Shown here: piece after piece, positions 3,956 through 62,984 of the stretch
Position numbering within the stretch: the first letter of the stretch is position 1
How the letters are laid out: each line of letters begins with the position of its first letter
Origin: Stegostoma tigrinum
Lineage: Eukaryota
Length of the DNA: 64,000 nt
Direction of reading: 5' to 3'
Assembly: GCF_030684315.1 (NCBI RefSeq)
Contig: NC_081368.1
Location: forward strand, 22,005,899 to 22,069,898
Made by a program: the position numbers and the translations under genes
Notes under the pieces: model-generated
Told to the model about the DNA's origin: nothing
The model's database searches: none
The model's input: the letters and a program-made list of their open reading frames with translations, nothing else

Positions 3956-4292
3956 GTGCATCAAAACATAATATTTTTATTCATCATATTCTAACTGAGC
4001 ATGTTTGTTATTAAATCCCTTTTCTAAAAAAGACTGGAAGAATATCTCTGCTATGCCAGTGTTAATATTGAAATTTCTATCATTGATGGTATCAGATGGA
4101 AAAATCGATGCCAAGTGCAAATGGAAAACAGGAGATTAAAGGCACAGATTCCTTTTATTCGGATAGATTGAGTTCTACAATACAGGGAATATACCAGATG
4201 TTGAATGGTCTCAGACAATCTGTTTTTAGATGTTCATTAGCATGTTGTGTAATCATTATGGTTACATTTTGATGGCATGATATTTAAGCAGG

Positions 4293-4464
4293 GATAATAG
4301 GAACTGCCGGTGCTGGAGAATGTGAGATAACACAGTGTGAAGTTTGATGAACACAGCAGGCCAAGCAGCATCAGAAGAGCAGGAAAGTTTGACATTTCAG
4401 GTCAAGACCTTTCTTCGGAAAATGAAGAAAGGTCTCAACCCGAAACAGCAAACTTTCCTGCTCC
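4293..4464. repeat. Second fold-back PLE-terminus element (right arm truncated)
   Basis: gagcaggaaagtttgacatttcaggtcaagacctttcttc-ggaaaat-gaagaaaggtctcaacccgaaacagcaaactttcctgctc. Confidence 0.8.
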
Positions 4465-7129
4465 CATGATATTTAAGCCATTGCTTTTGAGCTGCTTTCA
4501 AAGAAACATATCCAAAATATGACTTTTTCTCACCCCACACAGAGCTTAGCATTTCTGACAAGGATGTATCGAATTCTTTTGATCCTTGAGGGTCATGTAT
4601 TGGATCAGCATTGTGACATCCTCAGAAATACCCATTGCGGAACGTGTTTCTAGTTACCAGAAATAACAAGCACCTAACTGATAATGGCCTATTAACCATG
4701 ACTGCATTTCAAATGCATTACGTGTGAAGGTAGCAGTGTATCTCAATGACATAACTTGTGCTGGTAAAGCAGAAGATCTTGCTTTCCTCTTTTAATTTTC
4801 ATCCATATTGGATGAATCAAATCCACAAAAAAGTAACCTGAAAGATGAATTCATCGTCTGTGTTTTAAAACATTTCTTAGACCAAAATGTTTGGGAACAA
4901 TGTAGGGAACAAGCTACTTTAGACCTAGCAATACATGATGAGAAAGGGTTCATGAATGACCTCTGTAAAGGACAGTTTAGGCAAGAGTGAGCATAACATG
5001 TTAGAATTTCTCATTATCTTGGGGTGAAAAATGTGATCTGATTCTCCTGCCTTAAACAAAAAAAGGGCAAGAAGATAGTCTGATTAGAGTGGAAAAACAG
5101 GTTAAAAGATATAATGACACAGAAGTTGCAATGGACTTGAGTATTTTATAAAGCTCAAAGGTATACTCTATTGAGAAAGCAAGGTGTTACATAAAAGATG
5201 CATCAACCATGGCAAACTAAGGAAGATGTGGTTAGTATTAAAGTGAAAGGAGAAATGCACAATGCTTCAAAGATAAGTAGCAGTCCAAATGTTTGGTTTC
5301 TCCATTTTTCTTAAGGACAATTAAACAAAATGAGGCATACAATAGATAGAAAGAGCCTCTACAAGCATATAAAAAAGGAAGACCGTAGCTAAAGTGAACA
5401 TTGGTCAGAGTCAAAATCCCAGGACATTTCTACAGTGGATCCTCAGGTTAGATTAACTTTGCTATTTCATCAGTGACTTTCCTCCAATGTAAGATCAAAT
5501 ATGGGCATGCTTAGAGACAATTGTGTAGCAACTAGTACCATCTGCAAACTCCTCATATCCTGAAGTAGTTCAAGCCCACAAATCAACAAGACCTTGAGAA
5601 TATTCAGACTTGAATTGATAAGCTAAAGTAACATTCATGCCATAAGTGCTAGACAATGGCCATCAGGAGTCAATAAAATCTAACAATCATCCACTGAGAT
5701 TCAGTGATATGACCACTGCTGAATCCTCAATCCAGAACAATCAACATCCTGAACAGGTGTTACCTTACCATTGACCAGAACAGAGCTGGGTAAGCCAAGA
5801 ACTTTTTGGTAACTAACTTGCACCACTATCTAGAGGCACAAGTCAGAAATATGATAGATACTCCCCATTTGTCTGATGAGTGCAGCTGTAACATTCAGGG
5901 TAATTCAACATTCAAAAAAGGCTACTTGATTGACTTCACACCCACCACAATTGTATAGTGGCTGCATTGTGACCAGGTCAACGTCCAGGAATTCATGACC
6001 AACTGTGTCTTTACTTGAAAAAAAATGTACTGTAGAAGTTCAAGAGACCATCATCAGTTTCTCAAAGGCAATAAAGGGATCAATAATGAGGGTTTCCCTT
6101 GACAGTAACAGTCATCACATGAAGGAAGTGAAATAGCAGAAATACAAAACGTAAAAGTGAAATATCTGAGTTGAAGTTATGGTGAGGAAGATGGAAGCAA
6201 AGAAGAAAACATAACAGAATTCAGGGAACCAGTAATAACACGTTGTTTGACTATAATGTGAACATCTGTCAATACTTATCTTGGGGTTTATAATGTTACA
6301 GAACACTTTTCTTGGAAAAAGATAGTCTTTGTTCTAACCAACATGTATTTTTGTAACGTTCATCTCATCTCAGAAAACCAGTCTTTCACATGTATTGAAT
6401 TGCGTGATTGTAATTGCTGGTAAGGTAGATACATTTCTACCTTACTTTACATTTAACGTTAGTTTTATCTGAGAGTTTTTTCTTCTTTTTTGTTTGACAA
6501 GCAGCACTAAACAAACAAAATTTACTTGTCATTTTGCTGATGTCAATTATAAGCTGTGTTGAAGTCCAATAATCTTAAGGGACAGATTTTTCTCCTCACT
6601 TCTAATAACCGATTAGTAGTGGGTCTAGGTAAGGCTTAGGAATTGGCTCAGCTTGAGGGCCTGTTTCTGTACTATATTGTATAACCTCTGTTTGATGCTT
6701 GCCCCAATTACATCCATGATCCAGGAATTTGTTCTTTGAGTAAAACTGTACCTTTACCACTTCATAGCACAATCCATTAGGAGTATAATTACTTCAAATG
6801 AGCAATAAAATGCAGTCAAAAATATTTTCTTTTTTCATATGGTACAGCCATTACTGGGAGTTTTCTAAAATGGTTCCTTCGACTTGTACTGCTTTGAGTT
6901 AGGTAATCAGGATTCAAATACACAGATCAGCATTCAGTCTGCTTACTTACAAAATCACAGATTTGTAATAGTGCCAGTCATTCGACCCATCATGTCTGCC
7001 CCAGCTCTCTAGGCATACTGTGACTCTGTGGCATTCACATCCATTTCCCCATAACTCTGAAGATGGTTTCTATTAAAACAGCCATCTAATGGTGCCTTGA
7101 ATGTGTCATTGAAACCTGCTTCCATCAAC

Positions 7130-7980: not shown

Positions 7981-8764
7981 CTGTGACCCTAAGATTAAAG
8001 GCTAAAAGTGATGGAAATACTCAGGTCAGGTGGCTTCTGCGAAGGAAATAGATTTAATAGTTCATGTTGATGACCTTTTATAGAAATAGAAAAGTTATAC
8101 ACAATAGATTTTCAGTGAGGGGGGACAGGCTGGCGGGGGGGGGGGTAGTTTTATTTAGTAGAATTTAGGATGGCTTAAAGGAGTTGGCAGAATGAGACTA
8201 ATGGGAAAAGTAAAGCATTAAAGTTGGACAAAAAAGTGATGCAGGTTTTGGTTTTACTTTCCTATTTCTCGTTTTTGTTTTCAGATTTCATACTGCCATT
8301 CACATTTAGAATGTAATTGAGGTCTTAAAGTATATTTCAAGAATTATTTCTTTTTCTTGCATTAAATCGATAATGCAAAATTTAATGCAAGTATTTTAAA
8401 TCATTAAGATACAATGAAAAATGCATTTCATGCACAATAATGAATCCAATTTGTAATTGCATTTTTTTCAGATACAGTGGGGTCTGTGAAGTCCTACATC
8501 ACATATCAATCACATTTTCCTCGGTTTGGTAGTGGTAGTGATTGCATCATCTTTACAAACATGCAGCTTGCCACGTCGTTTCAGCAAACAGCTGTGGGAC
8601 AATCACAATGCTGTAGGTCTAAAGTCACATATGTATCAGACCAAGTAAGGATCTTCCCCTAAAAGAAAAATCACTGAATGGGGAGGGTTTCCATGACAAT
8701 TTAGAAGTTTCATAGTTAGCATAATTGTTACAGCATTGCATTCCAGATTTAAGAGTCCTACAGG

Positions 8765-15362: not shown

Positions 15363-59164
<43,802 letters not shown>

Positions 59165-60620: not shown

Positions 60621-61028
60621 CTGAAAGCCAGCATACACCCGTTCTACTATCTAGTTACTTCTGATCATAAATTTGTATGAAAATAACATGTTTCTAACAA
60701 AAGTTAGCAGGAAAAGATAAATATAATGGAAAGGAAAGCATGGAAAACAAGTCTCAGTACATCCTACAAAGGTTCAAATTACGATACTTGTTCCATGCAC
60801 CCAAAGGGAAACTCCATAAAGCCACAGTCCTCATCTTTTTAACTGATGACCACAGTCTCCAAAAATCTCCCAGAAGATGTTCAACACACTAGTGATTCAA
60901 GTGAGGCTATACCTCCAATTGGAAATGCAGCCAATTCCTACTTTTAGTTTCCTAGGACAACGTCGGGCTGTAGTTGAATGAAGGCTAGGTAATACCGGAT
61001 AAAGAGAAAAATAAGTTGCATTTTACAG

Positions 61029-61252
61029 GAGATGACAAGGTGTAGAGCTGGATGAACACAGCAGGCCAAACAGCATCAGAGGAGCAGGAAGGCTGACGTT
61101 TTGGGCCTAGACCCTTCTTCAGAAATGAAGGAGGATCTAGGCCCGAAACATCAGCTTTCCTGCTCCTCTGATGCTGCTTGGCCTGCTGTGTTCATCCAGC
61201 TCTACACCTTGTCATCTCAGATTCTCCTGCATCTGCAGTTCCTACTATCTCT
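61029..61252. repeat. Fold-back (palindromic) PLE-terminus element; arms 61029-61121 and 61126-61218, 4-nt loop
   Basis: 93-nt arms are reverse complements with 6 mismatches; centre cttca-gaaa-tgaag. Confidence 0.9.
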
Positions 61253-62984
61253 GTATTTTAAAGGATTTGATTCAGTTATTAAATGCAGTCATGTAATAAT
61301 AGCATAGAACCCAAATTTTATCAATACCTTATGGCTCTTGATTGAACTGTTCTTACTGCACTGCACAGAGGTGGCCTCCCATATTGTACGCATCATAAGA
61401 GGTCATCAAAACCTCCGCTGCCCACTTTCGTATTTACATTCAACTGCATTCACTGATCCATTATGTGCTCACTGACCTATGCTGACTCCTGGATTAATCA
61501 ATACCTTGATTTGTAATTTATTTGAAAATCAGTGAATGGCCTTTCCCCATGCAATCTCTAATCTGCTCCAGGTCTACAATCTTCAGTGATATTTGCACTC
61601 TTAATAGTCTACTGAGCATTACCAACTTTAAATCAGTTTACCATTTGCATTCAGGCCTTCAAAACTCAAAGCTCAGAATTTCCTATCTGATCCTCTCTGC
61701 CTCTAACATGGTCTTCAGCATTACCTTTCTAATCTTAACCTGCTTTAACATCTCCTTGTAAACTAGCACCGAAAATTGTATCAAGAACACTTTCACGAAG
61801 CAACAGTGCCTTTTGCGATGTTAAAGGTGTAAGGGAGATACAAGGTTCTTGTGCTTGAATGCTCGATGGAATGATGTCAATAGCAAGTTTGTTAATGGTA
61901 AAACCACAAATAACCTGTAGAATACCTAAAGGTCACAACTGGCATAAAATAACAAAGAATATTGAGAAGCCATTAGGCCACTTTGGATTTTTGGTTGACT
62001 GATCCAATGATGGCAGGGAGTTCTAGAGTAGACAACTTGTTTAGTGGATCAATTAACAGACTCAAAAGCCTACTGTGCTAGATACACACAATATACACGA
62101 GAGCCAGCTTCCATAGAAACAGATGAAAAATTAGTCACATGCTAAAATTATGTAATACATTTTTAATGGAAGAGTATTTAAATTTAGATAGTCAAAAACA
62201 AAGCACACAGACATGAAAACATTGCAAACATACTCCAAAGCTGCACATCAAGACAGCACTTAAAATGAAGGGAAGCATAGATCTTAGAAAACTTTATATT
62301 TACGTAGAACAGAGAATGCCATTGTATACTGCATAATGTGGTTTATTCCATAAGGATAGAAGATCAAATTGCTTAGGGGCAATGCAGTTACGTGAATACT
62401 ATTCAAATTACATTCCCAAATGAATAAAGCTATGATTTCAGAGAAAATGGTATATAGTTAGTTTCATAATTACATTTGAAAACTGTAAACAAAATACCAG
62501 TATAATTTTGGAAGGAATCTTTAATGTGGTTTATTTTTCAAGAAAGCATGCAAAGGAAGAGGTTTCAAGCAATAATTGAACAGATTGTACATTTAATTAC
62601 AATTCCTATTTTGAACAGGACAAGCTTGACACATTTAATACACTAGCTATCTGCTAATAATTAAATATCTGACACTATCTTGTTAAATGTTAACATTAAG
62701 GTTAAAAGCGACTCTCCTTCTCCCTCAGTATCTTAACCCCAACTAGAAAATAACTCTGATCCCTCTAGCTTCCGACCCACACTAGCACCTGGCTAAAAGG
62801 GCAAAACAGAAAACTTGCATTCGGAGGCTTCAAGCTCCAAGACATACAAAGTTCACAGCAAATTAAAGAAAATACAGGGATATGTTGGCAGAGTAACCAG
62901 ATTATGAAAAAAGATAAATATTGTGTATACAGTGTAATGGTTAGAGTAAAGACAGACATTTTTCTCCCCCATTATCTTCTTTCA

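Follow-up and report, generated by a model that had tools for sequence, protein, structure and literature searches.

The window, i.e. the whole 64,000-nt stretch of Stegostoma tigrinum DNA that we analysed, contains a compact head-to-head insertion at 61029-61252. Its two arms (61029-61121 and 61126-61218, 93 nt each) differ by six mismatches and surround the centre cttca-GAAA-tgaag, as the original prediction had described. That account lacked two further features of the insertion: a tail of approximately 34 nt (61219-61251), unpaired and carried by one arm only, and a 14-bp TSD (61017-61030 and 61252-61265, both on the plus strand; 12/14 identical) that bounds the insert and whose left copy shares its last 2 nt with the element end. 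The predicted RNA fold of the hairpin reaches -187 kcal/mol (z -25.9) with none of 200 shuffled sequences folding equally well, and G-U pairing rescues three of the six mismatches whichever strand is read.

Both arms are copies of a PLE terminal module and each strand carries a hammerhead-like motif with core substitutions, in agreement with what had been noticed before. When +1 is assigned to C3 of the hammerhead core, the tail-less arm covers module positions -4 to +94 on the minus strand (61029-61127, loop bases included; 94% identity to the family reference). The tailed arm covers +2 to +127 on the plus strand, where its paired part (61126-61218) extends to +94 and its tail (+95 to +127) matches the outer-end peaks of the 381 sampled arms described below. 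The minimal hammerhead remnant of the tail-less arm (61095-61122, minus strand; core layout after PMC4209133) shows CpG decay in GAAA, where G12 has become A, and that of the tailed arm (61126-61152) is without C3 and carries A9>G, a change in stem II and G16.2>A; the catalytic core is intact in neither. The arms are joined at 61122-61127, which comprises the 4-nt loop and a 2-nt CA/TG microhomology, and comparison with the parent upstream sequence, taken from 47 body-bearing copies, identifies the GAAA loop as parent PLE sequence (TTTC on the minus strand). An Rfam scan of the 64-kb window found no hammerhead, and three weak Rfam matches (E 0.028-0.41), two of them to miRNA models on the hairpin, were taken as chance.

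The host gene is ABCB7, as originally proposed: an exon-bearing reading frame at 55896-56195 on the minus strand matches human ABCB7 (E 6e-44) and Pfam ABC_membrane (E 4e-8). The hairpin is intronic, lying upstream of both this exon and an exon-like stretch near 59.1 kb, and no ABCB7 exon was found upstream of it as far as the window end. Presumably the intron is intron 4, which is plausible from the human exon numbering. According to the folding prediction, the ABCB7 pre-mRNA would contain dsRNA formed by the hairpin.

A second hairpin insertion (4276-4478) had been reported to fold at the same position, and we find it to be real and to fold at nearly the same one. It spans 4290-4464, with a tailed arm at 4290-4421 (minus strand) and, at about 4423-4464 (plus strand), a short arm of approximately 42 nt, between exact 14-bp TSD copies (4276-4289 and 4465-4478). 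Its tail is on the loop-bearing arm, which gives it a polarity opposite to that of 61029-61252. The PLE terminal module is present nine times in the window.

Several other repeats are found elsewhere in the window. A nested inverted repeat at 28062-28739 (repeats I4, I5, I14 and I17) has arms whose translations resemble the endonuclease terminus of another PLE family; here, too, a second family probably shows the head-to-head layout. Further long inverted repeats at 23195-23671 (I2/I8) and 47236-49428 (I3/I6/I12/I13) derive from other repeats, and a 314-aa open frame at 24376-25320 (minus strand) resembles a LINE reverse transcriptase.

Parent element and genome census

The hairpin belongs to an older sister subfamily with a median identity of 89% to its reference, compared with 94% and 98% for the other two subfamilies. 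This older subfamily is also found with body sequence, at 8,462 exact body-module (parent) junctions genome-wide, and RT and EN fragments lie upstream of its module in locus L069. A younger sister subfamily is represented in the window by a 5'-truncated coding copy (25748-27810, plus strand) that ends in a tail-less terminal module. By eye, its 581-aa open frame contains RT, a CX4CxxC linker and a GIY-YIG-like endonuclease domain with two internal cysteines; Pfam returned RVT_1 at E 4e-5, below the gathering score, and no GIY-YIG match. These motifs indicate that the source element is an EN+ PLE, in which the module is tied to an RT and, at the C terminus, a GIY-YIG-like endonuclease. The parent family looks Neptune/Nematis-like by the linker criterion, CX4CxxC fitting CX2-5CxxC (PMC8557442).

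The coding copy has 75 genomic matches at 96-100%, and eight multi-kb head-to-head pairs account for 16 of the 75 best protein matches; three of the eight show equal open-frame length on both sides. Copies of this youngest subfamily (window 25748-27493 and the 75 matches) include many with identical scores and open frames of up to 1,174 aa, so that the subfamily was active very recently.

The module is composed of a minimal type I hammerhead, approximately 65 nt of further sequence and the tail. At the family level the hammerhead shows the layout of PLE minimal hammerheads, with the CUGANGA...GAAA-C-G-UH core, a bulge before G10.1-C11.1, the palindromic C-G, a helix II of 4 bp, a helix I of 2 bp and a predicted cut at +28/29. 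Its core is intact in 61/73 young, 25/57 middle and 20/91 old arms. At four loci, including window position 18814, the tail runs on into shared element sequence (partial tandems, pLTR), namely the element 5' part; the unit thus begins as well as ends with the module, which also holds for the Anolis Poseidon element PAc (PMC11167929). Head-to-tail units of approximately 290-300 nt, comprising the module and a piece of the element 5' part, occur at window 18519-18972 (minus strand), L082 4977-6187 and L059 2099-2673; each bears a hammerhead motif, and they are internally deleted, retrozyme-like PLE derivatives.

The census covered 156 systematically spaced 10-kb stretches of the large contigs (180 positions planned), equal to 1.555 Mb without N, and 30 loci chosen by full-length similarity were excluded from all population counts. 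The sample holds 381 arms, including 100 head-to-head pairs, 75 of which are compact (within 300 nt). Extrapolation yields about 150,000 compact hairpins genome-wide, some 58,000 of the older subfamily, as a rough figure to which a few chance neighbours possibly contribute. The arms range from less than 50 nt to about 2 kb, and the hairpin at 61029-61252 is the short end of this one continuum.

The outer ends of the 381 arms peak at two sites, +90-99 (155 arms) and +125-129 (168 arms). A tailed arm is paired with a tail-less one in 91 of the 100 pairs and with a short one in seven; one pair is tail-less plus short, one is tail-less twice and none is tailed twice. Exactly one arm is therefore tailed in 98/100 pairs, and both in 0/100 (p 8e-27). 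A TSD surrounds 76/100 pairs versus 1/97 shifted controls, and its length is 14-16 bp in 45 of the 76; enclosing the whole unit, it speaks for one insertion event. About half of the arms (181/381) are without a detectable partner, and a search for very short hidden partner arms beside solo copies gave no signal (6/125 versus 8/125 controls). These unpaired arms, 88 tail-less, 82 tailed and 11 short, use both start sites about equally.

Origin of the paired arms

The TSD, the fixed outer ends, the presence of exactly one tail, the near-unique junctions and the sharp 5' limit point to one event with two starts in coupled use, and we infer that both starts were used together on one RNA and the cDNAs joined by repair. 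The origin that we regard as probable is a single TSD-flanked head-to-head insertion: both nicked target strands would have primed RT on one RNA, one at the tail end and the other 34 nt inward, with run-off at the 5' end of the RNA, just in front of the hammerhead, and joining through microhomology.

Whether the two arms came from one template can be approached through the alleles they share. Derived non-CpG alleles are common to partners, per site, at 0.030 versus 0.007 when permuted in the old subfamily (29 pairs), 0.0175 versus 0.0105 in the middle one (24 pairs) and 0.0050 versus 0.0004 in the young one (26 pairs). CpG decay is independent between arms, with both mutated in 4, 3 and 7 pairs against approximately 4.7, 2.5 and 6.7 expected, implying that the likeness of the arms dates from insertion and not from later gene conversion. 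Both arms of 61029-61252 share +89C, seen in only 3/130 sampled arms. Arm lengths also agree between partners: in the 87 pairs analysed (4/91 without a self-BLAST match were dropped), 63 are short-short, 21 long-long and only three mixed (Fisher p 7e-17), and in six of the 21 long pairs the arm ends lie within 25 nt of each other, where 0.95 would be expected (p 0.00025; breakpoints are BLAST estimates).

The same data bear on the rival that survives best, twin priming on two RNA molecules, from one source locus or from co-active sources, with one RNA per protomer and microhomology joining. We consider it unlikely, yet it explains the TSD, the two fixed outer ends and the variable junctions equally well. 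The arm ends of 15/21 long pairs are more than 25 nt apart, an asymmetry that counts against one template, and +32 is discordant in 11 of 45 C/T pairs, the hairpin at 61029-61252 among them, a discordance that two templates with a common source or date would account for equally. Two RNAs would, however, require an added rule for the 98/100 one-tailed pairs and for the scarcity of mixed lengths (3/87), and the private alleles common to partners also argue against them.

Somewhat less likely still is self-priming, in which a single cDNA would fold back at a short palindrome and serve as its own template; for head-to-head PLE repeats, an antisense RNA has been proposed in this role (PMC3846280). 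Such a process would give arms that share alleles and long pairs that are nearly symmetric, as 6/21 are, and junctions do often fall at palindromes or overlaps of 1-6 nt. It predicts a fixed first arm, whereas of 91 pairs 39 have a tail-less arm that extends further 5', 32 a tailed arm that does so, and 20 two arms ending within 3 nt of each other. Both outer ends are at fixed sites that also occur alone, and many long pairs contain hundreds of unpaired central nucleotides. At 61029-61252 the loop is on one arm and the tail on the other, and plain cDNA snap-back fails there because each arm has sequence absent from the other; a variant with an antisense template and later trimming may still hold.

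A hot spot of arm 5' ends at the front of the hammerhead, which the recurring fold position had suggested, is evident in the census: 124 of the 381 arm 5' ends lie at -7 to +6 (8.9 per nt), compared with ten at -30 to -8 (0.43 per nt) and approximately 2 per nt downstream, and the same cluster is seen in unpaired copies. An origin of this cluster in the ribozyme, through RT stalling at the fold or a ribozyme-cut template, is improbable in our judgement. The cluster does coincide with the 5' strand of helix I, and six arms start at +29, the predicted cut, against a background of about 1.9 (Poisson p 0.013; loci including L037, L043, L046 and L059). RT approaches the fold on the 3' side, from +29 on, and reaches -7 to +6 only after passing the whole hammerhead, so that stalling fits poorly; snap-back after ribozyme stalling, in the form first put forward, is not supported, both on this count and on the placement of loop and tail. 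Ribozyme mutants, moreover, left in vitro insertion unchanged (PMC11167929). Templates cut by the ribozyme would end at +29, so the starts there hint weakly at cleavage, but an AGCT palindrome at the same position also favours joining and confounds this signal.

Run-off at the RNA start would fit the cluster better than stalling. TATTTAT is found at -34 in all three subfamilies, and in the older one it stands 31 nt above an initiator-like CCATTTC; we read these as TATA and Inr from the consensus sequences. The cluster may thus mark a transcription start set by TATTTAT, and with a start at about -3 the short arms would be full run-off copies. The commonest mapped ends in the older subfamily are -2/-1, compared with the predicted -3, and inspection by eye of solo 5' junctions for a cap-derived extra G gave nothing clear. 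TATA/Inr-like motifs are described in a rotifer pLTR (PMC3846280), whereas the internal, TATA-less promoter of D. virilis Penelope (PMC2377424) counts against a TATA-set start. On the opposite strand, the TATA-like TATTTATT at -34 to -27 reads AATAAATA, which resembles a poly(A) signal and could affect host transcripts running antisense.

The original prediction offered two readings, a self-propagating palindromic family or recurrent snap-back, and proposed a junction search and an arm tree to separate them. Junctions are distinct in 88/91 pairs. The junction 20-mer of 61029-61252 has 179 exact genomic copies and its reversed control none. Among 20 of these loci, chosen at regular intervals within the first 100 matches listed, 14 are hairpins, with the tail on the right in nine and on the left in five; three are parent body and three are without a second arm. 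We considered a parent subfamily that already held the CTTCA/TGAAG mini-palindrome, and rejected it because such body copies (about 16 of 100 matches listed, or some 30 genome-wide, versus 8,462 standard ones) are as numerous as expected from double C>T decay. When the arms of 45 old-family pairs are placed on a tree, 35 changes of the side label are counted, compared with 30.3 +/- 2.6 after shuffling, and no allele among 65 sites is side-specific. A side-specific A9>G of tailed arms was likewise rejected (4/85 tailed versus 5/73 tail-less).

An arm's best match is its own partner in 13.9/87 cases, with 1.0 expected by chance, and partners are sisters in 5/45 pairs. Since the arms do not cluster by side and are closer to their own partners, the arm tree speaks for independent events. 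Amplification of the hairpin as a unit, MITE- or retrozyme-like, is very improbable and already largely refuted, because the 179 junction copies, although accompanied by many near-full-length look-alikes, are less than 1% of the estimated compact older-subfamily pairs, carry the tail on either side, show right-arm A9>G at background frequency (3/83 of matches listed) and are part of a population with no fixed centre, polarity or clustering by side. PLE origin and recurrence therefore stand from the original reading, and the self-propagating unit and plain snap-back do not.

Discussion

The hairpin at 61029-61252 is the shortest form of a known inverted PLE insertion. With both hammerheads broken, this copy is a dead-end by-product with no indication of a host function, and there is nothing unusual about the locus, which holds one decayed copy out of about 10^5. 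The value of the hairpins lies in their being a fossil of the PLE integration reaction. Any mechanism must satisfy one tail per pair, a stagger of 14-15 bp, arms from one template, the pairing of short with short and long with long arms, and a sharp 5' limit ahead of the hammerhead.

In the single-insertion scheme that we favour, the PLE protein, a dimer by analogy with PAc, would nick both target strands approximately 14-15 bp apart, and both nicks would prime RT on one uncleaved element RNA, at +93 and +127. At the 5' module copy, run-off of the two cDNAs would come after about 95 and 130 nt, and at the 3' module copy they would be long and stop variably. Trimming of the cDNA 3' ends and joining by overlaps of 1-6 nt would then give a head-to-head insert with one tail. 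For PAc, cutting and extension of both strands have been described, together with two internal RT initiation sites flanking the tail, a protein predicted to be a dimer and uncleaved RNA as the principal template (PMC11167929). The in vitro data concern a Poseidon element, whereas the shark family looks Neptune-like with its Neptune/Nematis-type linker, which counts against the scheme. In the main text of that study, the two sites, which likewise lie downstream of the hammerhead, are not tied to inverted insertions or to one RNA.

We are evenly balanced on a more general proposal, namely that PLEs integrate by coupled twin priming, in which a dimer with one RNA would use nicks approximately 14-15 bp apart and two tail-bounding starts, and in which the ~220-bp hairpins would be the complete double run-off of the first ~95 and ~130 nt of the RNA from a TATA-set start ahead of the uncut hammerhead. 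In L1 twin priming both target nicks also prime cDNA on one RNA, and microhomology joins the products into a TSD-flanked inverted insert; there, however, annealing of the second primer takes place at variable sites upstream, and the resulting segments are free of overlap. The second start of the PLE is instead constant in position, and with both cDNAs covering one and the same stretch a hairpin results.

The architecture itself, an inverted pLTR with a one-sided tail, a TSD and junction palindromes, is already known (PMC3846280, PMC8557442). The EN+ PLE insertion Pen2a_Av has an inverted 5'-truncated pLTR and a one-sided tail of 30-40 bp (PMC3846280), in line with the general scheme in PMC8557442. 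The shark hairpins share with this type the head-to-head inverted module, the tail at one end (34 nt here), the TSD around the unit, the microhomology or palindrome at the inverted junction and TATA/Inr-like motifs in a pLTR, and the shark family has partial tandems as EN+ PLEs do. They differ in having no ORF or direct pLTR between the arms, in measuring only ~220 bp, in TSDs of mostly 14-16 bp versus 8-10 bp in the rotifer cases, and in a copy number of the order of 10^5.

Pairs of minimal hammerheads on opposite strands, 100-700 bp apart, occur in PLE-rich genomes (PMC4209133) and share with the shark hairpins the minimal type I fold, the bulge before G10.1-C11.1 and the palindromic 15.2-16.2. 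In contrast to those pairs, the cores in 61029-61252 abut, helix I has only 2 bp and both cores are broken. Non-LTR retrozymes (bioRxiv 10.64898/2026.07.22.740005) are also non-coding, PLE pLTR-derived and hammerhead-bearing, but are described there as head-to-tail tandems with a complete type I hammerhead in each unit, whereas 61029-61252 has a head-to-head layout and broken cores and has not multiplied as a unit.

Tandem and inverted PLE products are still called unexplained in PMC8557442. Our literature search, which covered openly accessible papers, found neither one-RNA twin priming for PLEs nor these shark hairpins. The rules drawn from the census make the formation of inverted, one-tailed PLE insertions directly testable, including in the existing in vitro system (PMC11167929). 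If true, coupled twin priming would account for the inverted pLTR and the tail on one side throughout the PLE class. It would also mean that one family has seeded the genome with about 10^5 near-perfect dsRNA hairpins that are able to reside in introns. Long intronic dsRNA may burden ADAR and the small-RNA pathways in these fish.
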